DNA of 44,832 nt from a phage. Made by a program: the position numbers and the translations under genes. Below are positions 562 through 38,508 of this stretch, piece by piece; position 1 is the stretch's first letter, and every line of letters starts with the position of its first letter. The stretch is from sequence record PX055572.1. One strand, written 5' to 3'. Below the pieces are notes generated by a model. It worked only from the letters and a program-made list of their open reading frames with translations, ran no database searches and was not told where the DNA came from.

Positions 562-1808
562 GTATTCAGCTATCCGCACCACAGGCACTGTTCCTGAATT
601 GCGATAACAAATACAAGGCCTATGTCGGAGGCTTCGGTAGCGGCAAGACATTTGTCGGCTGTCTCGACCTGCTTACGTTCATGCTCCGGAACCCGGGTAC
701 CCGCCTGGGCTACTTCGGCCCCACCTACCCGGCTATCCGCGACATCTTCTACCCGACATTCGAGGAAGCGGCTAACCTCCTCGGCCTCGATGTGCTGGTT
801 AAATCTGGCGACAAAGAAGTCGTGGTCACTCGCGGTAAGACGGTGCTCGGAACTGTTATCTGCCGCTCGATGGATAACCCCGGCTCGATAGTCGGCTTCA
901 AAATCGCGGCTGCGGTCGTGGATGAGCTGGACGTATTGAGCCGTGAGAAAGCCGAGCTGGCGTGGAACAAAATCGTAGCCCGCATGCGTCTGGTTATCCC
1001 GGGGGTAATTAACCACATCTCCGTCACCACGACTCCGGAAGGGTTCAAGTTCGTTTACGCCAAGTTCAAGGAGAACCCGACGCCGAGTTACTCAATGGTG
1101 CAGGCGTCCACTCACGAGAACGCCAGATTCCTGCCGCCGGATTACATTAGCTCGCTGACTGAGACTTACCCGGCGCAACTGATTAACGCGTATCTGAACG
1201 GTGAGTTTGTCAACCTGACATCCGGAAGCGTGTATTACGCATACGACCGACGCAAGCACCGCAGCAAAGAGACAATTCAACCGGGCGACACGCTGTACAT
1301 CGGGCAGGACTTCAACGTTACGAAGAACGCCAGCGCCGTGTATGTGCAGCGTAAAGATGGATGGCACGCGGTTGCAGAACTGAAGGGCCTGTTCGATACG
1401 CCGGACACCGTGCGCGTAATTACCGAGAAGTGGAAGTCACAAGGCCACCGCATCGTCGTTTACCCCGACGCTAGCGGCAAGAACCGTAAGACAAACTCGG
1501 CGTCAATCTCTGATATTGCATTACTCCAGCAGGCGGGTTTCGATGTTCGCGCTAAATCAGCCAACCCCCCGGTTAAAGACCGCGTTTTAGCCGTGAACAC
1601 CGCGCTGGAAAAAGGTAAGCTGTGGGTTAATGACCACTTATGTCCTGAGATAGCCAAGACGCTGGAACAGCAGGCATACGACGATAACGGAGAGCCGGCT
1701 AAAGACGGCATCATTGACCATATGGCTGATGCTCTCGGCTATCCTGTAGTTTATGAGATGCCGGTGGTTAAACCAGTAATCAACATCCCGGTGACTTTCG
1801 CACTTTAA
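558..1808 (+). CDS. Terminase large subunit (ATPase/nuclease)
   Basis: Walker A GGFGSGKT near N-terminus, Walker B-like VVDELD, 416 aa, followed directly by portal-sized ORF. Confidence 0.8.
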   Translation: MSIQLSAPQALFLNCDNKYKAYVGGFGSGKTFVGCLDLLTFMLRNPGTRLGYFGPTYPAIRDIFYPTFEEAANLLGLDVLVKSGDKEVVVTRGKTVLGTVICRSMDNPGSIVGFKIAAAVVDELDVLSREKAELAWNKIVARMRLVIPGVINHISVTTTPEGFKFVYAKFKENPTPSYSMVQASTHENARFLPPDYISSLTETYPAQLINAYLNGEFVNLTSGSVYYAYDRRKHRSKETIQPGDTLYIGQDFNVTKNASAVYVQRKDGWHAVAELKGLFDTPDTVRVITEKWKSQGHRIVVYPDASGKNRKTNSASISDIALLQQAGFDVRAKSANPPVKDRVLAVNTALEKGKLWVNDHLCPEIAKTLEQQAYDDNGEPAKDGIIDHMADALGYPVVYEMPVVKPVINIPVTFAL

Positions 1809-1820
1809 GAGGATTATTAA

Positions 1821-3290
1821 ATGTTAACTATGAACGGTCAGAATCAGGGTGTTAAGACAAAACACCGGGAATGGCTGCATCACTTCGATAAATGGCAGAA
1901 GGTACGCCACGCGCTGGAAGGCGACCTTATTCGCTATCTGCGCAACGTCGGGAAGAACGAACCTGACCCGACCTACGCAGCCCAGCGCCAGGAAGAATAC
2001 GAGAACGGTGCTATCTGTTACAACTTCACTAAACGTACCCTGGCGGGGATGACGGGGTCAGTGATGCGCAAAGACCCTGAGCAGATTATCCCGCCTGAAC
2101 TTGAGTACCTGTTGCACAACGCTGACGGTTCGGGTGTAGGGCTGTGGCAGCACGCGCAGGATACGTTAATGGAGATTGACTCGATAGGACGCGGTGGGTT
2201 GCTGGTGGATGCCCCGGAAACAGCCGCAGCAACGGCGGCAGAGCAGAACGCGGGATTATTAAACCCGGTAATCGCATTCTATACCGCGGAGAACATTATC
2301 AACTGGAGACTCACCCGCATCGGTTCAGTGAACCGCGTGACGATGGTTGTATTGCGTGAGGCATGGGAATACTCGGAACCAGGCGCTGAGTTTGAAACAA
2401 AATTCGGCGAGCAATACCGCGTCCTTGACCTGATTGACGGTCGCTACCGCCAGCGCATCTACCGCTTCGATGCCGAAGGTGGCGCACAGGATGAAGTAAT
2501 CGAAATCTTCCCGGAACTCGGCGAACAGTTGCGCGGTAAAATCCCGTTCACGTTCATTGGCGCAAGCAACAACGACGCCACTATAGACGATGCGCCTTTA
2601 CTGCCGTTAGCTGAGCTAAATATAGGACACTTCAGAAATTCGGCCGATGTGGAAGAGGCCAGCTTTATAGTAGGTCAACCGACACTGTTCATTGCCCCCG
2701 GCGAGAACATGAGCATGGAGCAGTGGAAAGAAGCCAACCCACACGGCATACGCATGGGGTCGCGTTCAGGCCACAACATCGGCTCCGGCGGAAATGCGTT
2801 TCTGGTTCAGGCGGCGGAAACTAACCTCGCCAAACAGAATATGCTGGATAAAGAGAATCAGGCCATCCAGATTGGCGCGCAGCTTATCACCCCGACGCAG
2901 CAAATCACCGCGGAATCGGCCCGCCTGCAACGCGGCGCCGACACGTCAGTCATGGCAACAATAGCACGTAATGTAAGCATGGCGTATACCGATGCGTTGC
3001 GCTGGGTTGCGGGTATGCTTGGGCTTAGTGAAGATACTGAGATTGAGTTCAAGCTGAATATGGAATTCTTCCTGCAACCTATGACAGCTCAGGACCGCGC
3101 TCAGTGGATGGCGGATATTAACGCTGGCCTGCTACCCGCCACCGCTTACTATGCTGCGTTGCGCAAGGCAGGTGTGACTGACTGGACAGATGAGGACATT
3201 CAGAACGCTATTGAAGACGCACCTCTGCCGTTGGGTTCTGTTGCTCAGGTAGCGGGAGAGATTCCGCAGTCGGCGCAGCAACAGGAGTAA
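1821..3290 (+). CDS. Portal protein
   Basis: 489-aa ORF directly after terminase large subunit with SD aagagga 8 nt upstream; gene order and size. Confidence 0.7.
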   Translation: MLTMNGQNQGVKTKHREWLHHFDKWQKVRHALEGDLIRYLRNVGKNEPDPTYAAQRQEEYENGAICYNFTKRTLAGMTGSVMRKDPEQIIPPELEYLLHNADGSGVGLWQHAQDTLMEIDSIGRGGLLVDAPETAAATAAEQNAGLLNPVIAFYTAENIINWRLTRIGSVNRVTMVVLREAWEYSEPGAEFETKFGEQYRVLDLIDGRYRQRIYRFDAEGGAQDEVIEIFPELGEQLRGKIPFTFIGASNNDATIDDAPLLPLAELNIGHFRNSADVEEASFIVGQPTLFIAPGENMSMEQWKEANPHGIRMGSRSGHNIGSGGNAFLVQAAETNLAKQNMLDKENQAIQIGAQLITPTQQITAESARLQRGADTSVMATIARNVSMAYTDALRWVAGMLGLSEDTEIEFKLNMEFFLQPMTAQDRAQWMADINAGLLPATAYYAALRKAGVTDWTDEDIQNAIEDAPLPLGSVAQVAGEIPQSAQQQE

Positions 3291-3296
3291 ATAGAA

Positions 3297-3322
3297 AGGC
3301 CCCGCTAGGGGCCTTAGTTTTA
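3297..3322. terminator. Bidirectional intrinsic terminator (portal / KilA-N convergent)
   Basis: AGGCCCC-gcta-GGGGCCT flanked by T-rich on + and - strands. Confidence 0.6.
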
Positions 3323-3973
3323 ACGTATATTAGCCGCACATTTACGCACAACCCGAGGTATCGCCTCTTTCAGTTCACCCCATGTATTAACGGCCTCCAT
3401 GTCAAGAAGCGTCACCAGAGCTTTCTGGATGTCACTTCGCAACTGATTGGTCTTCGCATCCTGAGAGTCCCATGTATCGAAACCCGTTACGTCGCGGATA
3501 TCTACGGATTCCTTTACCGCTTTAGCCACCTGTATGAAGTGTCCACTGTGGCCAATTCTTCCCTCCGTGCGCTCGATCATTCGACTAACGGCAGCGTTAA
3601 GCTCGACAAAGCTCACCGCGCCAATGTTTCGTAGTTCTACCTGCCGTTGTGTGATAAAGCGGTCGATAACGAGGAAATGGAAATAGGCGCTGTATTGCTC
3701 AGCAATATATACTGCCAGATGGAGACATGCAAAGGTGCGACCGTTTCGGCCTTTCGTCGCCCTTATGGCATTCTCGATTCCGAGTTGTTTTTCGCATTCC
3801 TCCTTGAAAATCTTGAAGCCATCCGTTGCCATGACCTGGCGAAGCTCTCTGGTCCCCATGCCGTTGTCTAAACGCCAACGGTTCATCTGGTCAACCAGCT
3901 CGTTTACGTTAATAAAGTTTTCACGGTCAAAAGTGATTTCTCCATAAGGGAACTCTAATGTTTGCAGTTTCAT
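3320..3973 (-). CDS. KilA-N domain protein (moron-like insert in head module)
   Basis: Reverse-strand 217-aa ORF between portal and head-morphogenesis genes; central segment GRTFACLHLAVYIAEQYSAYFHFLVI resembles KilA-N/APSES core (from memory); SD AGGAGA; own promoter with palindromic operator. Confidence 0.5.
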   Translation of the reverse strand: MKLQTLEFPYGEITFDRENFINVNELVDQMNRWRLDNGMGTRELRQVMATDGFKIFKEECEKQLGIENAIRATKGRNGRTFACLHLAVYIAEQYSAYFHFLVIDRFITQRQVELRNIGAVSFVELNAAVSRMIERTEGRIGHSGHFIQVAKAVKESVDIRDVTGFDTWDSQDAKTNQLRSDIQKALVTLLDMEAVNTWGELKEAIPRVVRKCAANIR

Positions 3974-26205: not shown

Positions 26206-27626
26206 TTCTTACTCCTACGTTTCATATAATTAAGTAGTTCATCCTGTACAGACCTTTTCTCGTCGGTACGCGCGGCGACAACCTCGTCCAGAGTGTCTTT
26301 AGCAACGATGTGATAAAGGAACACCGGGCGCTCGTGACCCGCCTGTTTCTGGCGGACTGGGCCTATGCGCTCAACAACCTGCAAATAGTGCTCAAGGTTC
26401 CAGCCTTGCGAGATGAACGCCAGATGATGACCCCCGTCCTGTAAATTCAAACCATGCCCGGCTGACGCAGGATGCACGCATAAAATCTCGATTTCCCCAC
26501 GGTTCCACGCTTCCATCTGCTTGTTCCCCTTAGCGCCTTTGGCGAACGCCTGTGCCTGTGGGAATCGCTTAAGGATACGCTCCAGTTCGTGTTTAAACTG
26601 ATAGGCTACCAGCAACGGCGCACCCTGCAACTCCTCAACAATCGACTCGAGCGCATCCAGTTTCGTGTCGTGCACTTTCTCCCAGTCTTTGGTCGCTTCG
26701 CCATCCGGCCCTGACACATACACGGCACCAGATGCAATCTGCAAGCACTTTGAGGTCTTCGCCGCAGCGTTAGCCGCTTCAACTTCCCCGCTCTCCAGTT
26801 CTGCGAATAACTTCTCCTCCATATCTATGTACGCCTGACGCGCTTTCTTCGGCAGGTCGATTTCCACCGGTACGATAACAGGCGCTTCACAACCGAACCA
26901 CTCGGCGGCGTCAATCGTCAGACTGATGTCCTTCATCTTCTGGTGAATCTCGTTATCTGCACCAGGGCGGGCGTGATATTCACGTGCCATCGCAGATTTT
27001 CCTTTCTGTACCGAATTAAACCAGCGGTCGGTGAATGCTGTATACGACGAACCTAGGCGCTCGCCAGCGTCGATAAACCAGTTCTGGCCCCACAAATCCT
27101 TGAGGCCGTTTGGTGACGGTGTACCAGTCAGGTTAATAAAACGCTTAACCCTTCCGAAAGCCACTTTACTAAGCGCCTTTGCACGCTTGCTACCACCTGA
27201 ACGGCTGCGGAATGATTTAAGCTTCGTGCTTTCATCTGCAACGATAACCGTAAAAGGCCAGTCGTCTTTGCCGTAGTAGTCAATCAGCCACTCGATAACC
27301 TCATAGTTCGTGCAAACCACGTTAGCATCTGACTCCAGCGCTGCGATGCGGCGCTTCTCCGAACCAGTTGCATCTACGACACGCAGACAAGGGAATTGCC
27401 ATTTCTCTTGTTCAGCGGGCCACGTACCGGACGCAACACGTAACGGGGCAAGGATTAACACGCGGTCCTCTTCCGTAAGCTGCCCGTTGCGGAACAGGCG
27501 GTTGAGCACCCACATAGTGGAGGAGGTTTTACCTCCCCCCATTCCGCACCATATATTACAGCGCGGGTGTTGCAGCATAAACGAAGTCATGAGCTTCTGG
27601 TATTCGCGCCTTTGAAACTTACTCAT
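26202..27626 (-). CDS. SNF2/DEAD-like superfamily 2 helicase
   Basis: Walker A GMGGGKT, DEAD-like box IVADEST, C-terminal helicase motifs; 474 aa. Confidence 0.75.
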   Translation of the reverse strand: MSKFQRREYQKLMTSFMLQHPRCNIWCGMGGGKTSSTMWVLNRLFRNGQLTEEDRVLILAPLRVASGTWPAEQEKWQFPCLRVVDATGSEKRRIAALESDANVVCTNYEVIEWLIDYYGKDDWPFTVIVADESTKLKSFRSRSGGSKRAKALSKVAFGRVKRFINLTGTPSPNGLKDLWGQNWFIDAGERLGSSYTAFTDRWFNSVQKGKSAMAREYHARPGADNEIHQKMKDISLTIDAAEWFGCEAPVIVPVEIDLPKKARQAYIDMEEKLFAELESGEVEAANAAAKTSKCLQIASGAVYVSGPDGEATKDWEKVHDTKLDALESIVEELQGAPLLVAYQFKHELERILKRFPQAQAFAKGAKGNKQMEAWNRGEIEILCVHPASAGHGLNLQDGGHHLAFISQGWNLEHYLQVVERIGPVRQKQAGHERPVFLYHIVAKDTLDEVVAARTDEKRSVQDELLNYMKRRSKK

Positions 27627-28578
27627 TTACCGCCCCCATGAATGCCTTTATAAATTCAGCGGCTACTTGCGGGACGATGGCATTGCCGTAACCGCGCAAT
27701 CGTCCCACTCTGGCGGGTATCCCATTAGCCAGCGGGAATGTGCTGGGTTCAACTGGCCGGAACTTTCCATCCCTGCATCCGAGCCAGTCAGCATCTGACC
27801 AGAAGCTGTGATGCGGGTCGGCTTCGCCACCGGCGGTAAGTCGCTGTTGTCTGTTAGTTGCGCTATGGCCTGCGTTTGCAGATGCGTAGCCCGATGCATC
27901 GGCCTCCCACTGGTTCGGGGTGTCGCAAACACCCCGTCCATTGCCTTCGGCGTTTGCCACGCCGCCATCAAACCCTGTTCCGTAGCATAATCCAGACGGT
28001 CGAAGGTTCTGTCCTTCCCATCCTTGCGTATCACTGTCACCCCGCTGCCTTTGAAGTCGTTCGCTGTCGGTGTAGGCCAATTGGTGTGCGCCAAAGAACA
28101 GTCTGTCGCGTTTGTGCGGTGCGCCGACGCTACAAGCTGGGAGTACGGCAAACCCGACGGCGTAGTCTTCTCCTTCCAGGTGAGTTTGTAAATCGCACAT
28201 CCACGATTTTGCAATTGCTGGCGCAACCTGTTCCCCAAAGAGGACTGGAGGGTGGCACTCGCTGATGAGGTCGAGGAACACAGGTGCGAGGTGTCTCGGG
28301 TCGAACTGTCCGAGTTGCTTTCCTGCCGCGCTAAACGGTTGGCAAGGCGGGCTTCCCGTCCAGATAGGCGTATCTTCCGAAACTCCCGCAAGTCTGAGCG
28401 CGAGAGGCCAGCCGCCGATACCAGCGAAAAAATGACACTGGGTGAACCCGTCGAGGTCTTCTGGCTTAACTTCGGTAATGCTTCTTTCATCTACAACTCC
28501 AAAAGGTATATGACCCTGTTTTATTAGTTCACGCAGCCACGCGGCTGCGCCTTTATCCCATTCGTTGTAATAGTTCAT
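27619..28578 (-). CDS. DNA (cytosine-5)-methyltransferase
   Basis: Motif I FAGIGG, motif IV catalytic PCQ (SPPCQPFS), motif VI-like GEQV, motif VIII RDR, C-terminal [10 protein letters not shown]; 319 aa with Gly/Asn-rich variable region. Confidence 0.75.
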
Positions 28579-29297: not shown

Positions 29298-31473
29298 AGC
29301 GTTTTAACTCCTGACCTTCCGCTACAAGAGGGAACCCCTCCGCCCATTCTGGTAATTCGCACATCAATCGCTCAAGCTCTGCGACATTGTATTCCGGCGT
29401 ATCTGGAGTTTCGCAGATAATCTCATCGTGGACATGAAGTACAATTGGATAACCGTTTGCTTCAACGTTAAGTAGCGCATTAGCCAGCAAGTCACGGCAC
29501 AGTGCCTGAGTGCAGTTTTCCACCAGTTTACCGGAGTAGGTGTACTGGAAGCCCCACTGCCTGGTTAACTGATTTTCACCCTGATACTTGATGCGCACGT
29601 TAGTAGAAACTTTTCCGTCTTCGTCTGTCTCTTTTGACACGCTCAACCCGACGCCCGGGTATGACATAACGCGACCTGACGGCAACGTCATGCGCAACCA
29701 CCAACCAGCGACTTTGTTGCCGTTGTTGTCTGTTTCTACGTTGCGAGAAAACTTAACCCCGCGAGGGCCAGCGGTGAACTCTTTCCCCGGATTACGGATT
29801 GCTGCCATAGCTGCGTCTTCAATATCGCGCCAGAATTGGACTATTGCAGGATTAGCTTCCCGGTACATGCGCTTTAAAGCGTCACAGGTGCGCCAAACTT
29901 TCTTATCAAGGATATATGAGGGTCGGTCATCTTTTTCACCAGGACGTGGTGGTCGCTTGGCTTCCTGAATACGCGCCCATTCGTATCCGCGTGCGGTAGC
30001 GGCCCAAATATGGTCCGGGAATGTACCGTCTAAAGTGTTAGTCATGTCATTCAAATCAAGACCTAAGTTTTTAGCAAACGTGACGAAAGCACCGACGCCC
30101 CCCGCGTAGCCGAGTCCCAGAACCATTGCTTTGGCTATTTGTCTTTGGTCCTTTGTTACGGCTTCATATGCAACATTGAACACCGTTGATGCGAGTTTCT
30201 TATACACATCAACCCCGTTTACAAATACTTCGATTAAATCGTCTTCACCCGCCAGCCACGCAAGACCGCGGCCTTCGACGTTAGAGTAATCGGCAACGAC
30301 AAACTTATGCCCTGCTTCCGGTATGATGCAGCTACGAACGGTCGATGCCGTTAGCTTGGCTACGTCAAATCGGCGGTGCGCCCGGCCCTTAAGTAACGCT
30401 GAAATGCCTTTATCCAGTTCATCATCGTGATAGTACCCACGCGCGAGGTTCTGCGGCTGAAAGCCTTTACCGGCAAATCGTAATGTACGCTTGGCTCCGC
30501 CGTACTGAATGCAACCACGACGGCGGTCGTCCGACGAGCGCCCTAACAGCAGCGGGTTATATTTCGTTGACGCTGTGGACGCGGCCCCGAGGCGCATTTC
30601 GATAATCGTGCGTGCGTCGTCCGGTAAATCATCATCCGCCAACAGGTCGTTAAGCGTAGACTTCTGCGCGTTGTGGATGCGGTGCGCTGGTGCAAGTTCA
30701 CGCAGAATCGGCAGGAAGTCTTTACCAGTAAGCGAGCCGCCGTATTTGCGCTGTGCTTCTTCCTGTAGCTGCGCTTTGTGCTTCTCCACGGCTTCAATCG
30801 CGGCTTCTGCCAGTGCAACGTCAACCTTAAATCCGCGGTCGTTAATCAACTGGTCCAGTTCCAGTACACGGTCTTCGAACTCGGAGTTACCCCAACGCGG
30901 CAGCTTATGGAAGACTTCACGCATCGCAGTGATGTCGCTCACGGCGTACCTGATGAACATCGCCCACTCGTCAGGGTGAGTTTCTGCGGTGTAGCGGCGG
31001 ATTTTGTAGTTCTTCGGCGTCGGTTTAGAGAAACGCTTAATCAGAGCCTTGCCGCGTTTATCTTTCGCGTTGTCTGCAGACACGCCCAGCACTTCGCACA
31101 GCGCATCAAGAGAACCCGGCAGCGCGTGACGGAACGCCCAAATCATAGTATCAATGGTGTTACTTACCGGAATATCAAAGTCCCAGCAGTGTTTCATGAT
31201 TAGGCGATCGAACATTGAACCGTTGTGCCATACCATCTTAATGCGGCTGTTGGGCTTAACAAGGCGGCGCAGTGCGCGGTGTAAATCCCCCGGCATGTCG
31301 CTGCCGTCGGTGCAATCCCATACCCGCACAGGTTCGTCGTCAAAAGCATATGTACAGATAAGCACTTCGGTTGACGGGTGTTCGGCGTAAGCGTAAGAAC
31401 CGACTTTCTTCAAATCGGCTTCTGAGAATGTTTCAAAGTCTAAGTAAAGCAATGTGTTCATAGTCTGTACCAC
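29287..31473 (-). CDS. DNA polymerase, family A, with 3'-5' exonuclease domain
   Basis: Exo I-like LYLDFETFS at N-terminus; polymerase motifs KAMVLGLGYAGG and HVHDEIICE; 728 aa. Confidence 0.85.
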   Translation of the reverse strand: MVQTMNTLLYLDFETFSEADLKKVGSYAYAEHPSTEVLICTYAFDDEPVRVWDCTDGSDMPGDLHRALRRLVKPNSRIKMVWHNGSMFDRLIMKHCWDFDIPVSNTIDTMIWAFRHALPGSLDALCEVLGVSADNAKDKRGKALIKRFSKPTPKNYKIRRYTAETHPDEWAMFIRYAVSDITAMREVFHKLPRWGNSEFEDRVLELDQLINDRGFKVDVALAEAAIEAVEKHKAQLQEEAQRKYGGSLTGKDFLPILRELAPAHRIHNAQKSTLNDLLADDDLPDDARTIIEMRLGAASTASTKYNPLLLGRSSDDRRRGCIQYGGAKRTLRFAGKGFQPQNLARGYYHDDELDKGISALLKGRAHRRFDVAKLTASTVRSCIIPEAGHKFVVADYSNVEGRGLAWLAGEDDLIEVFVNGVDVYKKLASTVFNVAYEAVTKDQRQIAKAMVLGLGYAGGVGAFVTFAKNLGLDLNDMTNTLDGTFPDHIWAATARGYEWARIQEAKRPPRPGEKDDRPSYILDKKVWRTCDALKRMYREANPAIVQFWRDIEDAAMAAIRNPGKEFTAGPRGVKFSRNVETDNNGNKVAGWWLRMTLPSGRVMSYPGVGLSVSKETDEDGKVSTNVRIKYQGENQLTRQWGFQYTYSGKLVENCTQALCRDLLANALLNVEANGYPIVLHVHDEIICETPDTPEYNVAELERLMCELPEWAEGFPLVAEGQELKRYAK

Positions 31474-31736
31474 GTCTGATAGTCTGCTTCTGTGAGATGG
31501 TCGTCGCGATCTTGTTTCTTGTTTTTACCGCGTTCTATGATTTCTGCCCAAGTCCGGTCTGGGTCTGTGTCTTCTATTAAATGTTTATGCTCCTCGCATG
31601 CATAGTGTTTATACCAGTCTCGTACACCGTAAGCTGGAGGGTATTTAGTCATCCAAATTGCTCTAACTTTTTTACCTTCTGCCTTACAAAATTTGCAGTA
31701 TGTGATGCGTCTGTATCTCTTAAGTTCCGCTGCCAT
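31458..31736 (-). CDS. Cys/His-rich hypothetical protein (zinc-binding-like)
   Basis: CKFC...CEEHKH pattern; 92 aa; overlaps polymerase start by 16 nt. Confidence 0.4.
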   Translation of the reverse strand: MAAELKRYRRITYCKFCKAEGKKVRAIWMTKYPPAYGVRDWYKHYACEEHKHLIEDTDPDRTWAEIIERGKNKKQDRDDHLTEADYQTWYRL

Positions 31737-31795: not shown

Positions 31796-32419
31796 TTAAC
31801 GGCGGCGACGTTCGCGACGCGGTGCGTCTTCTTCGTCGTCTTCCAGGTCCTCGACGCTTGCAGCTACTTTAGAACCACCGAACGCTTTACCTTCGCCTAC
31901 GTATTTAATCGCCAGCAGGTTAACGCCGAGGACTTTGTATTTCTGGCTGAACCAGATTTCAACGCTTACGTTAGCTAAGCATCCGCTGTAAACCTGTTCA
32001 CCTTCAATCTGTTCGCCGTCTACGTTGAAGTCCTGCTCTACCTGAGTCTCACCTTTTTTAGAGGTTACAATCAGCGGCTGTTTCTGTGCCTTCGCTTTGA
32101 AGTAGAAGCCTTCCGGGAAGTCTTCAAACGGATTGTCGCGCTCGGCAATGTCTTTAATCGCGCATTTATCCATGTGCTTACCTTCACCGTAGTTGGACTT
32201 CATCCATTTCTCGGCAGCGGCTGCGCCTAACGCTTCTTCAACTACAGCGTAAACGGTGTCGTAGAGTGCATCGATTTGAGCATGGTCAGACGGCAGGATG
32301 ATAGTCGCGCTGTACTGGCCTTTAGTGATTGAGCCATCATCGTTTTCACGGTCTTTTTCACGTTCAAATACGTTAACCCATGCAGTGTTTACTTTACGCA
32401 GATTCAGTTTAATACCCAT
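31796..32419 (-). CDS. Single-stranded DNA-binding protein-like (acidic C-terminal tail)
   Basis: 207 aa with strongly acidic C-terminus SVEDLEDDEEDA followed by RRERRRR; position beside polymerase and exonuclease; downstream of promoter B. Confidence 0.45.
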   Translation of the reverse strand: MGIKLNLRKVNTAWVNVFEREKDRENDDGSITKGQYSATIILPSDHAQIDALYDTVYAVVEEALGAAAAEKWMKSNYGEGKHMDKCAIKDIAERDNPFEDFPEGFYFKAKAQKQPLIVTSKKGETQVEQDFNVDGEQIEGEQVYSGCLANVSVEIWFSQKYKVLGVNLLAIKYVGEGKAFGGSKVAASVEDLEDDEEDAPRRERRRR

Positions 32420-32487
32420 CGTGATTTCTCGCTTTTCAGTTTATATTTCAAAGTTTACTCCGGGAAGCTGCCCGGCCAGTGATTAGA

Positions 32488-32516
32488 ACTATAATAGCTA
32501 ACTATTCAGGTGTCAA
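32488..32516 (-). promoter_or_regulatory. Promoter B: TTGACA-N17-TATAGT with palindrome in spacer
   Basis: As transcribed: TTGACA CCTGAATAGTTAGCTAT TATAGT; upstream of SSB-like gene. Confidence 0.6.
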
Positions 32517-32520
32517 CACT

Positions 32521-33762
32521 TTATTCCAAATCTTCTTCACTAACCTGATTCCACTCAGGCCGTTTGTCGTCTGCCGTTGTGACGCATGGGGCACCTGGCT
32601 TACGTGTGATGAAGTCTTTCAGTTCTTCTTCCGGTATCACTTTAACAGCTTCGGCTGGCGTCATGAGCACTTCTTTAGTCAGCTTGTCGCCGTAGAGTTC
32701 TGTTACTTTCTCCGCGTCTTTCCACGCACGATTGCCCATCTTACCTTCAACCAGCTTGTACCCAGGAACTTTCTTACCAGAATGCAATGCGGCGGCCATC
32801 GCTTTCTCAACCTTGTCGATGTGCTGCCGCAACAACGGCAACTTCTCATACTCAACTACGAGTTGCTCCGGCGTCAGTTCTAGCACAAAGTCGTCTTCAA
32901 GTCCTTCCGCCAGTACAGAGTTAACGGTTTTTGTACGCGCGGCGCACTGTTCTGAGAACCGGCACCACTGGCAACCATCGACCGACGGCCTGAAGTCCGA
33001 CGCTTTCAGGTTCTTCTTACCGCGGAAATATGCATCTAACGCTAACAGGGCACGTTTCTGTGCGAACTTAGCGAACAGCTCCAGACCTTCGACCGAGATG
33101 TCCCACTCTGACGCACCTCCCGCGTACGGCTGGAAGATGACCAGGCGCACTACCGTGATGTTATAACGTCTCTTGAGTCGGCGATAAACACCGAGAGCGT
33201 AAAGCATAAGCTGCTTGTTCTCTTTCGCTTCGACACGATGCCGTCCTGTTTTAAGGTCGCCGATAATAAGCATGTGCTCGTCGGTGTTGGCCTGTTCCTG
33301 CACGGCAACAAGGTCGGCCGTTCCGAACGTCTCAACACCTTCATACCCCGGATGCAATACCTCAGTAAGATTGACACGCATTTCCAGCTTGGCGTAAGTC
33401 GCTACATCGATAACAGCTTTGCAGTAGTCGGTGTACTTGCGCACCTGCTCAATCATGTCAGCCGTAATCAGGACAGCGCCTTTCATCGGGCTAATTAGTG
33501 CCTTAATCTGGCCTTTGCCTTCATCCAGCACGTAAGCACCGACTTCACGTTCTAACGGCAACGCAGTGCCTTTGATGTACTGGTTTAGGTGCATCTCAGC
33601 TATTGTGTGCATTGCCGTACCTAATACGGCGGCTTTACCGGACGTGTTAGGGATATCTTTTTCACAGGCCAGTGATGCGGCACAGCTTAGCCACTTTTTA
33701 GCGCCAGACGGTGATAGTAAAGCGTGTACGTCGTTATTACCGCCGCGTTCTTTTAGAATCAT
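32521..33762 (-). CDS. PD-(D/E)xK exonuclease with C-terminal Cys cluster (Cas4/RecB-like)
   Basis: 413 aa; IIGDLKTG...MLYALG core and C-terminal CQWCRFSEQC cluster; ends in EEDLE. Confidence 0.55.
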   Translation of the reverse strand: MILKERGGNNDVHALLSPSGAKKWLSCAASLACEKDIPNTSGKAAVLGTAMHTIAEMHLNQYIKGTALPLEREVGAYVLDEGKGQIKALISPMKGAVLITADMIEQVRKYTDYCKAVIDVATYAKLEMRVNLTEVLHPGYEGVETFGTADLVAVQEQANTDEHMLIIGDLKTGRHRVEAKENKQLMLYALGVYRRLKRRYNITVVRLVIFQPYAGGASEWDISVEGLELFAKFAQKRALLALDAYFRGKKNLKASDFRPSVDGCQWCRFSEQCAARTKTVNSVLAEGLEDDFVLELTPEQLVVEYEKLPLLRQHIDKVEKAMAAALHSGKKVPGYKLVEGKMGNRAWKDAEKVTELYGDKLTKEVLMTPAEAVKVIPEEELKDFITRKPGAPCVTTADDKRPEWNQVSEEDLE

Positions 33763-34121
33763 CGTAAACTCTCCAAATACAAGTTTAATGCCTGTAGCTG
33801 TTCTTCTGTGGGAATGAAAGAATGATCGCGATGTAAGTCGCTTAACTGTTGCAGCATTCCTGCGAACTTACGTCTTGCGTCAATAGCGACCATGTGATGC
33901 TTTTCACTTTTATATATTAATGTTTTCGGGTAATCCTCAAGCCTACCAGACGATTTATTCACGCGGAGCGCCCGAGCTTCATGCACAATGTGAATGTACT
34001 TTTTGCCGTTTTGTAACACAGTAGCTACGCCGCTGCTCTTTCTGCGGTCGCCGACTGTGTAAACCTTGTCGCCACTACGCAGATTAAGCCACCATTTATC
34101 GGTCATACCCTGTTCTCCCAC
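33759..34121 (-). CDS. Hypothetical protein
   Basis: 120-aa ORF coupled within replication operon. Confidence 0.35.
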   Translation of the reverse strand: MGEQGMTDKWWLNLRSGDKVYTVGDRRKSSGVATVLQNGKKYIHIVHEARALRVNKSSGRLEDYPKTLIYKSEKHHMVAIDARRKFAGMLQQLSDLHRDHSFIPTEEQLQALNLYLESLR

Positions 34122-34375
34122 TGGTCAATTAAATGTCGTGTCTGGTGCTGGCAGTGCATGGCCCAGCTATACATCGACTCGAAGACATAAAAGTCAGGCT
34201 TGGCAAAAGTCGTGCGCTTAATCTGCGACACGTGACGGCCTATATCTTTGGGCCTGGGTACTTTGCCTAAGTACGCCATCTCTTCCATCTGGTGCGCACC
34301 GGAAGGAGCGCGCAATAGCCATAGAGCCTCCGTGTTATCCCGTCGGTCAATACCTCGGTAGAGTTGGTAAATCAT
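34103..34375 (-). CDS. Hypothetical protein
   Basis: 90-aa ORF in replication operon. Confidence 0.35.
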   Translation of the reverse strand: MIYQLYRGIDRRDNTEALWLLRAPSGAHQMEEMAYLGKVPRPKDIGRHVSQIKRTTFAKPDFYVFESMYSWAMHCQHQTRHLIDQWENRV

Positions 34376-34417
34376 ATTACGACCCTCAGTTAAAGCGGCC
34401 CGAAGGCCGCGGGATAG

Positions 34418-34936
34418 TTATTCTTCTTCGAAATACTTGTTCTTGATTGCCGTCAGGCGTTCAAGGTACTCGGGCAGGTCTTCATCTTTAATCGCGGCAA
34501 TCTTCATTTTCTTACCGGTGAACTCCTCCAGCAGTTCATCGGAATCGTCGCACGCAGCATCGCTAGGACCTTCGTTAATTGCATCGTCGATAGCCTGAAT
34601 CTGGTCACGCAGAGACTTATAATCTACTTCTTCCTTCTCTTCTTCCGGCTCTGGCGTAGGCTCCTCTGCTTTAGCTTTACGCGGCTTGCGTTTAGGCTTC
34701 TCTTCTTCTGCCGGTTTAGTGTCGACTATGTCTTCACCTTCTACCGGGATTTCTTTCGTTACTTCTTTCACAACAGTAGGCTCTATTGTTGCAGTTTCTG
34801 CGACACCACTGTCGGCGTCTTTACCATATGGCGCCGTGATAGCCTTCGGCAGTTCAGTACGGCGTGCACTGTTCGCGGCAATCAGTTCATGTGCAACTAC
34901 GAAACGTTCCAGCAATACTAAGAATTTCTCTAACAT
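34418..34936 (-). CDS. Acidic hypothetical protein
   Basis: 172 aa, Glu/Asp-rich with lysine cluster (KPKRKPRKAK). Confidence 0.4.
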   Translation of the reverse strand: MLEKFLVLLERFVVAHELIAANSARRTELPKAITAPYGKDADSGVAETATIEPTVVKEVTKEIPVEGEDIVDTKPAEEEKPKRKPRKAKAEEPTPEPEEEKEEVDYKSLRDQIQAIDDAINEGPSDAACDDSDELLEEFTGKKMKIAAIKDEDLPEYLERLTAIKNKYFEEE

Positions 34937-34960
34937 TTGTTTCTCTCCTGTTTGTGTAAG

Positions 34961-35188
34961 TTACTCACCGTCGCCTTCAGTAAGGCTATCGTCTATTAGT
35001 TCAAATTTACCGTTTGAGTGTTGAATAGCTTCTTGCCCGCAATGGTCACAGACAACAAGTTTATCGAACCCATCAAACTCATCCCCTACTACGCAAGAAA
35101 GTACAAATTTATGTTTTGTGCACACTTCTTGCGGAGCGCCGAAAATTGCTCGAAAACCTTTAGCTATGGCCCCAGTGATTGTGTTCAT
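34961..35188 (-). CDS. Small Cys-rich (zinc-ribbon-like) protein
   Basis: CxxxxxxxxC...CDHC pattern; 75 aa; first gene downstream of promoter C. Confidence 0.4.
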   Translation of the reverse strand: MNTITGAIAKGFRAIFGAPQEVCTKHKFVLSCVVGDEFDGFDKLVVCDHCGQEAIQHSNGKFELIDDSLTEGDGE

Positions 35189-35216
35189 ATCTGCCCCTCT
35201 CGTTTGGTATGGGCTA

Positions 35217-35245
35217 ACTATAATAGCGAACTATTCACATGTCAA
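35217..35245 (-). promoter_or_regulatory. Promoter C: TTGACA-N17-TATAGT with palindrome in spacer
   Basis: As transcribed: TTGACA TGTGAATAGTTCGCTAT TATAGT; in divergent region facing Cro-like gene. Confidence 0.6.
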
Positions 35246-35289
35246 TGGGCTTTTCTAAAATAATTAATATGGTACTATTCACATATCAA
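35234..35289 (+). promoter_or_regulatory. Candidate rightward promoter and operator-like half-palindrome for Cro-like gene
   Basis: TTCACA (35234-35239)-N16-TAAAAT (35256-35261) overlapping promoter C; downstream element GGTACTATTCACATATCAA (35271-35289) resembles the palindrome. Confidence 0.35.
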
Positions 35290-35309
35290 CTGACTAAGGA
35301 GTAACTGAC

Positions 35310-35525
35310 ATGCAACCATCTGAACTAGGCACCCGTGTAGAACAACGCCGTAAAGAACTCGGCATCTCCCAGCGCCGTTTGGCGGTCCTGACCGGCGTTT
35401 CCCAGGGCGCAATTAACCAGCTGGCTCTCGGTGTAACTCAGGACGTCCGCCCGGCAACGTTGTTTAAACTGGCGGAAGTGCTGGAAGTAGACGCTAAGTG
35501 GCTGGCGTTCGGTGAAGGGGCTTGA
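35310..35525 (+). CDS. HTH XRE-family transcriptional regulator (Cro-like)
   Basis: ISQRRLAVLTGVSQGAINQL helix-turn-helix; 71 aa; SD AAGGAG; divergent from replication operon; followed by terminator. Confidence 0.65.
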   Translation: MQPSELGTRVEQRRKELGISQRRLAVLTGVSQGAINQLALGVTQDVRPATLFKLAEVLEVDAKWLAFGEGA

Positions 35526-35542
35526 CGCCCCTTTCTTTTTAT
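35515..35542 (+). terminator. Intrinsic terminator after Cro-like gene
   Basis: GGGGC-ttgac-GCCCC then TTTCTTTTTATT; overlaps the stop codon. Confidence 0.6.
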
Positions 35543-35736
35543 TGCACCTTTATCGGGTATCTTTTGCGAAACTTACCTAACCCGCAGTACACGCTGTAAG
35601 CCTCTGTGTAACTGAACACAACATGATACCCGCGCCCATAAGGAACTACGTTAAGAACTTCTACTACTTCGCCTCTGTGGTTGGTGTATTTATTACCTTT
35701 CAGTTCGTCGCTTACTTCTTTAAATTTACCGCTCAT
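35539..35736 (-). CDS. Hypothetical protein
   Basis: 65 aa, coupled to primase-helicase stop. Confidence 0.35.
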   Translation of the reverse strand: MSGKFKEVSDELKGNKYTNHRGEVVEVLNVVPYGRGYHVVFSYTEAYSVYCGLGKFRKRYPIKVQ

Positions 35737-38018
35737 TCCAAATCCTCCTCTGTCACTGTCAACATTTCATTCGGTTCGTATATTGTCTTTGGAATCTTGT
35801 TATCAGTTATTCTGGTGTTCAGCCTGTAACGACCTGGGATTATCTGATTGTTTTCGTCAGTACCCGGAACAAGATACCCGGCCTCAACCATTTTCTTAAT
35901 CTTCCCGCGTTCTATGGCTTCTTTGGAGTTAAACGCCTTTGCGTTGGGGTCTGACTGTGCGAGCTTATTCGCCGCGGCGACTGTGATGCCTTCGTTGCCG
36001 TTGTAGGTTCCTTCCGCCAGTTCAAACGCCGCGAGTATCGTGGCCTCCGAACTGTTGACGGCGTTCTCTACGGTTTTACGTACATTTTCTTTACCTTCTT
36101 TCGTCAACCCTTCTTCCCGCTCTTTCTCCTCGTCAGTTTTGAACGGCTCGAAACCCCACGGCATCAACACAAGCGCCTTGTGTGGTTCAGGCAGGTCCAG
36201 GTTTACGATTGTGCCGTATTCCTCTGTGCTACCCGGGAACTCAACCGCTCGGTATTCTTTAGGCGGCGGCGCTTCACGGAACTGTACCGACTCCAGCACC
36301 ATGCCAACCGTCTTCTGCTGAGGCCCGTGCTTGAATTTCGAGTGATATACGTTTATCTGACGGTCGGTTGCACGTTCGATTGTCAGTTCCACGTCAACAC
36401 CCGCATACAGCGCCCCACTGCCGCGTGCTTTCTTTCCACCCTTCGGCGTATGGTGGACAACGCCTACTGCGGCTTTAGTTGCATCGCGTACTTCTTTCAG
36501 AATGGCGATAACTTTACCCATGCCGATTGCTGTTGATGAACTGTTCTCGTCGAACTTATCAATCGTCAGGGCCAGCGTCTGGTTAAGGGTGTCGAAGGCA
36601 ACCATGCCAATAGGTTCATCCCCTGCGGTTTCGCGCATCCTGCGGATTAGAGCTGGAATTTTTTTATCACCATGCGTAGCGAGTATTTCGCCCATATCGA
36701 TGACATGTACATAATCTTTACCTTCCTCGCCATATTTAGCCGCGAGTGCATCAATACGTGTTCGTGTAGCTGCACCACCCTCGCCGTCAATATAGAAATG
36801 GTAGCAACGTTGGGTGTCAGCCCCCGCAAACCGGTACCCGGCGGCGCTCAGGTACATCATCCCCAGCGTATAGAATGATTTGTACGTGCCGGATTCCCCG
36901 ACAATATCCCAGATACAATCCGACGGCATGTACCCCTCAACGACGAAATCAGCCTTTACCGGTTCTGGTAACTCGTCCTCCTCTGAGTCCTCGTCGTCTT
37001 CCAGGTCGTCGAGGCTGCATGAGACAGATTCACGCGCCCCCCAACCGATGGCCTCTGCGACTTCACTGAACGGCAGCCCGGTCGCATCGCACGCGTACTT
37101 CCACACCTCTTTCGGTGACAGGCCTTCTGTCGCCGTAATGTCTGTGTCGTGAATCATGGTTACGTTTGGCGCTTCATACCCCTCGCGCGGGAAGCACAGC
37201 AGGAAGTCGTCCGGGCGCGGTGCCGGGGCGCTGTAGTTTTCGGCATGTTCCGGTGTGGCTGGCATCTTAAGGCCGCGCGGCGTCATGACGCCGCCGTACT
37301 CAAACGCCAGTGCTTCAAACGCGTCTGTAAACGCGGTGCGCAGTTCTTCCGGTATCTGGTAATCCGATGCGCTGCTAACGTCAACGGCGGGGATGCCTTC
37401 CAGTAACTCGTTCGGGTCGATCAGGTCGTTGCGGCGCGACCAGATAACGGTAGCGCCGACCGGCGGCAGGTACATCGGCTGCGACAGAGTGAACCCGCTG
37501 CGGTCCGCACCCATGCCTTTGAAGAAGTGCTCCAGCAACCCATGACGAACACGGATGATGTCACCACCCTCCACCGGACGGGCCAGTGGCATTACGACGC
37601 GAAAGCGCGGTGACTCATCAGTATGTGATGCCGTGGTATAGAGGCACATGGCCCAGCGGCTGCGCTTAACCAGGCGCACCGCTTCCTGATACTCTTCCGG
37701 TGTTGTGCTGTCGAAATCCAGATAGGCCAGCGACGATTTGCTTACAGACGCATCGCAGCGGTAGAAAAAACCTTTACGCGCTTGCTTAAAGTCTCCAGTT
37801 TCCGGGTCTTTTACGGTGCTGTGCGTTGAGTCGCACGCGGCGGTGATATAACCGGGCGCGGTCTTAGGGTTAATCCCGTCGCGAACGGCATCGAGCGGCT
37901 GGATTAACTCTTTCAGGTCGTCCAGTGTTGCCGTGTGTGCGGTTCTGACATTTATATCCTTTTTTCCCGCCCGCGCGTTGCGGCGTGACCACGAGTAGGA
38001 TAAAATTACATCGGACAT
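35733..38018 (-). CDS. Bifunctional primase-polymerase (AEP-like) / RecA-fold helicase
   Basis: N-terminal LAYLDFD (DxD) and SH motifs of prim-pol type; central Walker A GESGTYKS and Walker B-like MVAFDTL; C-terminus ends EEDLE; 761 aa. Confidence 0.7.
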   Translation of the reverse strand: MSDVILSYSWSRRNARAGKKDINVRTAHTATLDDLKELIQPLDAVRDGINPKTAPGYITAACDSTHSTVKDPETGDFKQARKGFFYRCDASVSKSSLAYLDFDSTTPEEYQEAVRLVKRSRWAMCLYTTASHTDESPRFRVVMPLARPVEGGDIIRVRHGLLEHFFKGMGADRSGFTLSQPMYLPPVGATVIWSRRNDLIDPNELLEGIPAVDVSSASDYQIPEELRTAFTDAFEALAFEYGGVMTPRGLKMPATPEHAENYSAPAPRPDDFLLCFPREGYEAPNVTMIHDTDITATEGLSPKEVWKYACDATGLPFSEVAEAIGWGARESVSCSLDDLEDDEDSEEDELPEPVKADFVVEGYMPSDCIWDIVGESGTYKSFYTLGMMYLSAAGYRFAGADTQRCYHFYIDGEGGAATRTRIDALAAKYGEEGKDYVHVIDMGEILATHGDKKIPALIRRMRETAGDEPIGMVAFDTLNQTLALTIDKFDENSSSTAIGMGKVIAILKEVRDATKAAVGVVHHTPKGGKKARGSGALYAGVDVELTIERATDRQINVYHSKFKHGPQQKTVGMVLESVQFREAPPPKEYRAVEFPGSTEEYGTIVNLDLPEPHKALVLMPWGFEPFKTDEEKEREEGLTKEGKENVRKTVENAVNSSEATILAAFELAEGTYNGNEGITVAAANKLAQSDPNAKAFNSKEAIERGKIKKMVEAGYLVPGTDENNQIIPGRYRLNTRITDNKIPKTIYEPNEMLTVTEEDLE

Positions 38019-38075
38019 GTTGTATTTCCTTCAGCAAGTAATTTGGCCTCGGCGCTCTAACGTCGGGGCTTTCTT

Positions 38076-38309
38076 TTATTCCAGGTCTTCTACAGTAGCG
38101 GTCATTCCGCGAACTTCAGCAACTGCGCTATATTTCCCACCAACATTTTTCACGACACCATATTTAACCAGTACCTTCAACGACCCTTCAATAATGGCGG
38201 AACTATAGTACTTAAAATAACTACGGCGCAAGTCCATAACGCTGCACGACCCTTTTTTACGTGTTAATGAAACGACTGCCGTAAATACGCGTGACTGGAA
38301 CTCGGTCAT
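38076..38309 (-). CDS. Small protein, ends in EDLE
   Basis: 77 aa; C-terminus TVEDLE matches the EDLE tails of the exonuclease and primase-helicase. Confidence 0.4.
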   Translation of the reverse strand: MTEFQSRVFTAVVSLTRKKGSCSVMDLRRSYFKYYSSAIIEGSLKVLVKYGVVKNVGGKYSAVAEVRGMTATVEDLE

Positions 38310-38476
38310 TTTACATTCTCCTTAATCCACGCTTCCACTTTCTCCCGGTCAAACGTACCTGGCTGACGGCGGCCCATAATGCGGATACAACAATCCGGGA
38401 ACTTCCCACTCTTTAACCAGTTATTCAGCGTGCGACGGGTAACCCCGATACGCTCAGCTACCTCATTCTGTGTCAT
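38306..38476 (-). CDS. AlpA-like HTH DNA-binding regulator
   Basis: MTQNEVAERIGVTRRTLNNWLKSGKFP... resembles AlpA/excisionase-type HTH (from memory); first ATG downstream of - strand promoter TTGATT-N17-TATACT; ORF track starts at TTG 38503. Confidence 0.5.
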   Translation of the reverse strand: MTQNEVAERIGVTRRTLNNWLKSGKFPDCCIRIMGRRQPGTFDREKVEAWIKENVK

Positions 38477-38508
38477 CCTCAAGCCCCCATTATCAGTTAA
38501 CAAAATCG

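Follow-up and report, generated by a model that had tools for sequence, protein, structure and literature searches.

A short acidic peptide shared by four neighbouring proteins of a phage replication module is a probable docking motif

The window analysed here, a 44.8-kb stretch of DNA (PX055572.1; 44,832 nucleotides (nt)), is that of a Kagunavirus-like (Guernseyvirinae) siphophage of Escherichia coli, the replication region of which shares 93% identity with those of Escherichia phages BEU33 and BEU35 and ∼90% with that of K1G. A single replication/recombination module on the minus strand encodes a primase–helicase, a DUF2800 exonuclease, a gp2.5-like SSB (a protein that binds single-stranded DNA, ssDNA), a polymerase, a VRR-NUC protein and an SNF2 helicase. 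The gene set and order are those of the duf2800-gp2.5-polA replication/recombination module (PMC8093625): the exonuclease, SSB and PolA genes are adjacent on the same strand, and there is no separate bacterial-type ssb in the window. Within this module the SSB, the exonuclease, the primase–helicase and a 77-amino-acid (aa) protein (p77) together carry five copies of a short acidic peptide, [S/T]-x-[E/D]-D-L-E, which is the subject of this report (Table 1).

A preliminary description of this DNA had placed the peptide at the extreme C terminus of three of these proteins and close to the C terminus of the SSB. Translation of the minus strand bears this out, the exonuclease ending in NQVSEEDLE, the primase–helicase in LTVTEEDLE, p77 in TATVEDLE and the SSB in AASVEDLEDDEEDAPRRERRRR (also read as SVEDLEDDEEDAPRRERRRR). 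We found a fifth copy, absent from that description, within the primase–helicase (residues ∼335–349, SCSLDDLEDDEDSEEDE, containing SLDDLEDDE), 12 residues ahead of the AAA_25 domain. This internal copy closely resembles that of the SSB, the motif-bearing segments reading SCSLDDLEDDED in the primase–helicase and AASVEDLEDDEE in the SSB.

Table 1. Motif copies, their carriers and neighbouring genes in the window
Feature	Coordinates	Strand	Remarks
Helix-turn-helix (HTH) protein	38306-38503	-	
p77, 77-aa predicted winged-helix protein with ∼10-residue flexible tail	38076..38309	-	AlphaFold2 (AF2) model; no Pfam match; phrog_5169, no function assigned
p77, C-terminal copy T-V-E-D-L-E	38079..38096	-	
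Primase–helicase, 761 aa: N-terminal primase region, AAA_25 helicase (residues 352-528), C-terminal region	35733..38018	-	PF13481 1.3e-19; PHROG 3228, replicative helicase-primase
Primase–helicase, internal copy S-L-D-D-L-E plus acidic run DDEDSEEDE	36972..37016	-	Primase/helicase linker
Primase–helicase, C-terminal copy T-E-E-D-L-E	35736..35753	-	
Very acidic 172-aa protein (p172), among several small open reading frames (ORFs)	34418..34936	-	phrog_3127, no function assigned
DUF2800 / PD-(D/E)XK (Cas4-like) exonuclease, 413 aa	32521..33762	-	PF10926 1.5e-65; PF12705 2.3e-10; exonuclease annotation in relatives
Exonuclease, C-terminal copy S-E-E-D-L-E	32524..32541	-	Outside Pfam domain, ∼8 residues past invariant DKRP
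T7-type (Enc34/gp2.5-like) SSB, 207 aa	31796..32419	-	PF10991 E=8.6e-16, residues 5-198; PHROG 112, Gp2.5-like SSB/annealing protein
SSB, copy S188-V-E-D-L-E193	31841..31858	-	Start of acidic tail, 15 residues before protein end
SSB, remainder of tail	31799..31840	-	Acidic DDEEDA (31823-31840), then Arg-rich PRRERRRR (31799-31822)
p92, 92-aa basic, Cys/His-rich protein	31458-31736	-	phrog_9585, no function assigned
Family A DNA polymerase with 3'-5' exonuclease, 728 aa	29287..31473	-	PF00476 and PF01612; without motif, ends ELKRYAK

The motif is non-random and is constrained as protein. Translated in all six frames, the window yields only six instances of the string DLE, five of them at the motif sites; no other ORF in the window has a comparable tail. 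In a resampling of the 20 C-terminal residues of 70 non-overlapping ORFs, each from its own tail, three proteins with an identical last tetrapeptide arose in 1 of 200,000 trials (P∼5e-6). The copies are written in different codons (GAT TTG versus GAC CTG; GAA versus GAG), the DNA downstream of them is unrelated, and the distance to the next gene ranges from an overlap through 57 nt to ∼100 nt. Since codons and downstream DNA differ between copies, the constraint lies at the level of protein and a DNA-level repeat or regulatory element was ruled out. Acidic tails are common in DNA-metabolism proteins and GAGGA-like codons could resemble a Shine–Dalgarno sequence, such that the similarity might in principle stem from a coincidence of low-complexity acidic ends, or from a DNA- or RNA-level element (translational coupling, for instance) encoding EDLE by chance. 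This explanation has next to no chance of being correct: it is effectively refuted by the codon and resampling results, by the permutation results given below, and the motif is kept as protein in relatives at 30–75% identity. Across the copies, D-L is encoded as GAT TTG or GAC CTG and in no case as GAT CTG. As a separate observation, GATC is strongly avoided in the window as a whole (8 sites, at 3575, 7659, 17061, 20930, 31206, 31508, 33824 and 37419, against ∼156 expected from an order-2 Markov model), and CTAG is depleted too (23 observed, 72 expected).

Absence of the motif from homologues in related phages had been named in the preliminary description as a result that would speak against a common function; the motif is present in Jersey-, Cornell- and Dhillonvirus. 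Loci came from GenBank and IMG/VR, a tblastn search serving to reach diverse exonuclease relatives, and tails were counted at 51 Guernseyvirinae and Dhillonvirus loci with the pattern [DENSG]DL within the last 10 residues (the last 60 for the SSB). On this measure the motif is found in exonuclease tails at 49 of the 51 loci, in all 45 primase–helicase tails and in all 15 p77 homologues, each of which ends in [LVP]EDLE. SSB tails carry it at 42 of 51 loci; the misses include Dhillonvirus SSBs, where a long tail shifts the motif inward. None of the 47 polymerase or 45 SNF2 homologues has it in the tail. This permissive pattern also matches 13 of 47 VRR-NUC tails; as VRR-NUC tails give no co-variation signal, they were not counted as carriers.

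The core of the motif is kept while the residues flanking it drift, and it recurs on unrelated proteins. In Jerseyvirus Ent2 (exonuclease 72% identical) the SSB has SVDDLEDDE, the exonuclease ends VTEEDL, the primase–helicase TTEGDLE and the p77 homologue ATPEDLE. The Cornellviruses Shemara and PhiSTP2 (exonuclease 56 and 48% identical) have ATDSDLDDDDD in the SSB, ATDSDLED and ATDDDLAN, respectively, at the end of the exonuclease and INDLEDSQPTSEEDDLEN at the end of the primase–helicase, EEDDLEN being a Cornellvirus tail with the core retained, whereas Dhillonvirus slur05 (46% identical) has SDEDLDNDDE, ATDEDLSNE and ATDDDLKD in the same three proteins; no p77 was found in these Cornellviruses or in slur05. 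Residues E74, D75 and L76 of p77 are invariant across 21 cluster representatives. SSB diversity was sampled with a profile query and primase–helicase diversity with a library of 50%-cluster representatives. Most of the latter (30–64% identity) keep both copies, a C-terminal one of the form [ST]x[DE]DLx(0-3) (kept, for example, as ITEEDLE, SEADLE, TDDDLKD, TDDDLA or NEDDLEDLA) and an internal one, C[TSN]x[DEA]DL[x]D[ED], which lies just ahead of the helicase domain in all the representatives examined that have this domain (P0272–P0285 and P0289). The copies persist even where the N-terminal primase domain differs, and the two often match one another, as in P0280 (CTEADL and SEADLE) and P0283 (CTDDDL and TDDDLA).

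By the wider alignments, EDLE did not arise independently. Across the DUF2800 proteins of eight distant phages, the exonuclease SEEDLE aligns under DDF[DAG], ∼8 residues past the invariant DKRP, and among 25 T7-type SSBs SVEDLE aligns under a family-wide S-x-D-D-F-D downstream of a conserved DGExFG. A further 120 diverse SSBs have this proximal acidic/aromatic motif followed by a distal tip (DDDL, DDEV, DDF or DDIPF). Leu takes the place of the aromatic residue in Guernseyvirinae and Dhillonvirus. EDLE is thus, as aligned, a local F-to-L variant of an older [S/A]-x-[D/E]-D-F-D carried on SSB, DUF2800 exonuclease and primase tails across the duf2800-gp2.5-polymerase module.

The motif copies are predicted to sit in disordered tails or linkers outside folded domains, as judged from AF2 models for the SSB and p77 and from domain limits for the other carriers: the exonuclease copy is beyond the end of the DUF2800 model and the internal primase–helicase copy is outside AAA_25. 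By both fold and sequence the SSB is T7-type, with an oligonucleotide/oligosaccharide-binding (OB) fold, a long capping helix after strand β2 and a PF10991 match. Its AF2 model has a confident OB core, with helices at residues 49–64 and 66–76 following the N-terminal strands, and its best PDB fold matches, DUF2815 proteins among them, are 4KLK, the Enc34 SSB (5ODJ/5ODL/5ODK), 4JG2 and T7 gp2.5 (1JE5), at E values of 2e-10 to 1e-5. The predicted local distance difference test (pLDDT) score of the SSB tail is below 50 except at residues 189–192 (VEDL), which form a helical turn in the model, and V189–L192 looks like a small island of binding motif. The SSB has an acidic segment (SVEDLEDDEEDA) yet ends in PRRERRRR, so that the acidic/hydrophobic C-terminal tip of other PF10991 SSBs (one of the four distal tips listed above) is replaced by an Arg-rich end. 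This replacement is conserved in Guernseyvirinae and Dhillonvirus, the latter with several alternating acidic/basic repeats.

The carriers had been described as four replication proteins, which holds for the SSB, the exonuclease and the primase–helicase; p77 is a predicted winged-helix protein rather than a proven replication protein. Its AF2 model (pLDDT 88) comprises a winged-helix domain at residues 3–66 (helices 3–19, 24–30 and 37–50, strands 53–56 and 59–66) and a lower-confidence tail, residues 67–77, ending in EDLE, for which block-mean pLDDT is 62–70 compared with >90 in the domain. The fold matches are to generic winged helices (the T4 MotA N-domain, the LexA DNA-binding domain and RPA32C) and none reaches an E value of 0.001. 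The last ∼120 residues of the primase–helicase (35736–36100, minus strand) also resemble p77 in layout, with what looks like a winged helix ahead of a tail. That p77 is a free-standing copy of this region was considered and found no support, BLASTP giving no match and hhalign an E value of 0.022 with a probability of 2%.

Tails change in concert within genomes. The tips in phage Enc34 are DDEDEV in the primase, DDDEV in the exonuclease, DEDEV in the SSB and EEEEV in ORF3; Maxdohrnvirus has the matching tips EDDL, DDDL and DDDL, and Pseudomonas phage SS2019XI has EGEDDL in the exonuclease, GGDDDL in the SSB and DEDDDL in the primase. Bordetella phage BMP-1 pairs DDFADVSGETVEDLV at the end of the exonuclease with DEFDDITEGAAAADLV at the end of the SSB, a pairing that also stands for BPP-1 (shared tip DLV), and uncultured lineages pair exonuclease and SSB tails, for example, as ASADDFDDVSEED with GSADDFDSYEDEEEFL and as STNDFDCV with SVNDFDMLDD. 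To quantify this we took 23 lineages (exonuclease <60% identical between lineages) and compared own-genome with permuted tail pairs by their best 7-mer BLOSUM score. Exonuclease and SSB tails gave a mean of 21.2 for own-genome pairs against 17.2 for permuted pairs (p<=5e-5), exonuclease and primase tails were likewise matched (p∼0.001–0.004), and the controls, exonuclease against polymerase, SNF2 or VRR-NUC tails, were not significant. The proposal of the preliminary description that one peptide is under common selection on several replisome proteins therefore gains support on two counts, its retention in relatives and the co-variation of tails within genomes. Because unrelated proteins carry a conserved, ordered peptide on their disordered tails, and because this peptide co-varies within genomes, it is probably a shared docking motif.

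Which protein would act as receptor is a separate question. In phage T7, as the preliminary description had correctly stated, the acidic tails of gp2.5 (ending EDGDF) and gp4 (ending NDTDF) share a binding site on the polymerase gp5, its front basic patch K587/K589/R590/R591 (PMC12339929); the gp2.5 tail is also needed for stimulation of the gp6 exonuclease. On the T7-like view to which that description points, the EDLE tails of the helicase–primase, exonuclease, p77 and SSB would compete for a single basic patch of the family A polymerase, an arrangement that would tether spare polymerases to the helicase and couple SSB displacement to synthesis. The resemblance is considerable. The SSBs share the gp2.5 fold, the same acidic-plus-hydrophobic peptide is found on both the SSB (SVEDLE) and the helicase–primase (TEEDLE and SLDDLE) much as T7 gp2.5 and gp4 both end in D-x-D-F, and in both phages flexible tails are the presumed mediators of protein–protein contacts in the replisome. 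Three of the window copies are at the extreme C terminus with a free carboxylate, as in gp4, and the polymerase stands alone among the large replisome enzymes in never bearing the motif. The differences are nevertheless substantial: where T7 has a terminal Phe, the key hydrophobic residue in the window is a Leu at position −2 followed by Glu; the copy on the SSB is internal, with a basic tail after it, the helicase–primase has a second copy in its linker, and the clients include an exonuclease and a winged-helix protein whereas T7 gp6 has no such tail. Moreover, neither T7 gp5 nor its thioredoxin-binding region could be matched to the sequence of the window polymerase; in a search of PDB sequences only residues ∼377–485 matched Taq, Bst and Klenow polymerases, and T7 gp5 was not among the matches.

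The polymerase gene itself provides a further argument. In 12 of the 23 lineages the slot between the SSB and VRR-NUC genes holds a ∼590-aa protein that is not PolA (L060:11764-13533, L069:5933-7714, L083:10468-12252 and nine others), its only Pfam match being RNase_H_2 and its matches to PDB sequences being weak ones to family B polymerases (1S5J, E=8e-5; E. coli Pol II, 0.008). No genome with the exonuclease and SSB but without a polymerase was found, since at the loci apparently lacking one the slot is filled by a ∼590-aa ORF. In these 12 lineages the exonuclease and SSB keep the same D-D-F-D as those of PolA lineages (such as the Staphylococcus and BPP-1-like phages), so that by this comparison the SSB is the constant partner across the polymerase swap. 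A motif left unchanged opposite a different, weakly family-B-like protein weighs against a patch on PolA. Taken together, the indirect signs point both ways, and we regard a polymerase-centred, T7-like arrangement as possible but rather unlikely.

The SSB itself is a candidate hub that we slightly prefer over the polymerase, because of crystal contacts in its Enc34 homologue and the survival of the motif in lineages with another family of polymerase in the slot. In crystals of the Enc34 ORF6 SSB (DUF2815, PF10991) the last 11 residues are disordered and the tail segment preceding them lies in the β-sheet groove of a neighbouring SSB; similar tail contacts were reported in the 4JG2, 4KLK and T7 gp2.5 crystals, together with a model of a filament that accommodates tail contacts as well as bound ssDNA (PMC5686142). 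Counting back 11 residues, the last ordered Enc34 segment, TSDAYD, occupies the same columns of the 25-SSB alignment as SVEDLE of the window, and Tyr188 matches Leu192. The Enc34 study mentions no sharing of this peptide with the exonuclease, the primase or any other protein and no lineage-specific co-variation, and the shared tip of Enc34 is DEV.

As a whole, the best explanation in our judgement, and one that is moderately probable, is a shared docking peptide with one phage-encoded receptor, preferably the SSB groove; we infer both the binding and the identity of the receptor from these comparisons. The motif would be displayed on disordered tails and linkers, once each on the SSB, exonuclease and p77 and twice per primase–helicase subunit, giving ∼12 copies per presumed hexamer. 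All copies would fit one phage-encoded site, a basic surface where a pocket accommodates the Leu, and the carriers would be drawn to a common hub, and replace one another there, both at the fork and on recombination intermediates. With the OB-fold β-sheet groove of the SSB as the preferred receptor, SSB-coated ssDNA would serve as the platform: the motif of the SSB would link SSB to SSB, and the exonuclease, primase–helicase and p77 would plug into an SSB groove left free, such as the one that ends an SSB array. As in T7, a second receptor may be the polymerase.

Several points weigh against this explanation. Crystal contacts may differ from those in solution, and the Enc34 authors settle on no biological significance for theirs (PMC5686142); moreover, the mapping of the motif onto the residues visible there derives from the text of that paper and our alignment, not from coordinates. 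The assignment of the ∼590-aa slot protein as family-B-like is weak. The co-variation test ignores kinship among lineages that are phylogenetically related and amounts to ∼4–6 independent concerted changes, the primase labels at distant loci are heterogeneous, and SSB against primase tails alone did not reach significance on score (p∼0.13). Finally, all carriers bind DNA, so their acidic tails might act in cis.

This last point has an explanation of its own, in which the tails are independent DNA mimics, each folding back on the DNA-binding surface of its own protein to provide autoinhibition or specificity, without a shared receptor. The T7 gp2.5 tail reportedly competes with ssDNA for its own groove, going by the title of a 2008 article by Marintcheva et al., and the Enc34 SSB without its tail binds double-stranded DNA (PMC5686142). 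Electrostatics, however, require no identical ordered sequence with an invariant Leu on four unrelated folds, and concerted, lineage-specific changes of tails across proteins are not what such a mechanism predicts. We consider it quite improbable.

A receptor might also be supplied by the host, the tails mimicking a host motif such as the C-terminal tip of the bacterial SSB (SSB-Ct) and so recruiting a host protein. The tip of E. coli SSB is DFDDDIPF. As proposed for the window peptide, this is a short acidic/hydrophobic sequence on a disordered tail, bound by a basic ridge together with a hydrophobic pocket, and host-like tips do occur in distant relatives of the module, as DDDIPF in T7-type SSBs and DF[NK]DVPF in PriCT_2 primases. 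EDLE is unlike that tip, however: no protein in the window ends in I/V-P-F, tips resembling D-D-D-I-P-F are confined to distant relatives, and the window SSB is not homologous in sequence to the bacterial protein. The logic is also inverted, in that bacteria have one key protein, the SSB, and many locks, whereas the window has many carriers of the key. Furthermore, Guernseyvirinae and Chi-like phages (Enc34 among them) infect the same hosts and differ in their tips, while phages of very different hosts share D-D-F-D, which argues for a phage-encoded, co-evolving receptor and makes a host factor very improbable. In a separate observation, the primase homologues of seven uncultured lineages (L067, L069, L070, L073, L078, L082 and L087) end in DF[NK]DVPF, DFVPF or DHIPF, much like the E. 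coli SSB tip; that of L069 (L069:1086-3584), the only one checked against Pfam, contains PriCT_2 and DUF5906.

A bolder extension of the SSB-groove explanation, which we put forward as a speculation more likely wrong than right, is that the tail is a lineage-private address code centred on the SSB. An SSB–SSB linking peptide would have been copied onto every protein with a need to locate SSB-coated DNA (the exonuclease, primase–helicase and p77) and would co-evolve with the groove, so that the replisome parts of co-infecting phages would avoid cross-talk and new proteins could join by gaining ∼6 residues. The Arg-rich SSB end of Guernseyvirinae might add multivalent acidic/basic networking, of the kind expected of condensate-like replication foci.

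Most likely, then, the window peptide works like the gp2.5/gp4 tail system of T7 and, in its logic, like the bacterial SSB-Ct hub, and differs from the T7 system in tip chemistry, copy number and client list. The duf2800-gp2.5-polA module has been described by gene content (PMC8093625); in the literature that we searched (protein families and acidic-tail docking, with incomplete coverage), we found no earlier description of the shared tail motif or of the non-PolA slot protein. If the docking explanation is right, the T7 acidic-tail paradigm, now resting on two proteins of a single model phage, would become a general rule for a very widespread module, which occurs in Guernseyvirinae, Dhillonvirus, Casjensviridae and BPP-1-like phages, in prophages of Staphylococcus and Streptococcus and in many phages that are uncultured; a recombination exonuclease and a small winged-helix protein would join the list of clients; and the SSB, not only the polymerase, would be a hub. 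The peptide would give experimental work on replisome tails a handle of 6 residues, offer a means of annotating unknown small proteins as replisome-associated, and suggest a design rule for orthogonal recombineering (exonuclease/annealase) pairs.

Other genes of the module have features of their own. The tail of p172, KYFEEE, is conserved in Guernseyvirinae and Dhillonvirus relatives as Y[FY]E[ILE]E[ED] (YYEIEE and YFELED, for example) and matches the DL motif at none of 48 loci; Enc34 ORF3, which ends in the shared Enc34 tip, occupies the same gene position. p172 is possibly a fifth tail-bearing protein, of uncertain membership. The stop codon of p92 overlaps the start of the polymerase gene, and Cornellvirus Shemara has a conserved counterpart (gp44); a role for p92 as an accessory factor of the polymerase is conceivable. 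Inteins are annotated in the polymerase and SNF2 homologues of Jerseyvirus (Salmonella phage Ent2, L001:4425-7523 and 1366-3831), and there are none in the window versions of the polymerase (728 aa) and SNF2 helicase (474 aa). Besides the VRR-NUC and SNF2 genes, this end of the module has an ORF resembling cytosine methyltransferases, and in the interval from VRR-NUC to the SNF2 helicase two minus-strand ORFs in different frames, 27619-28578 (319 aa) and 27663-28490 (275 aa), overlap almost completely.

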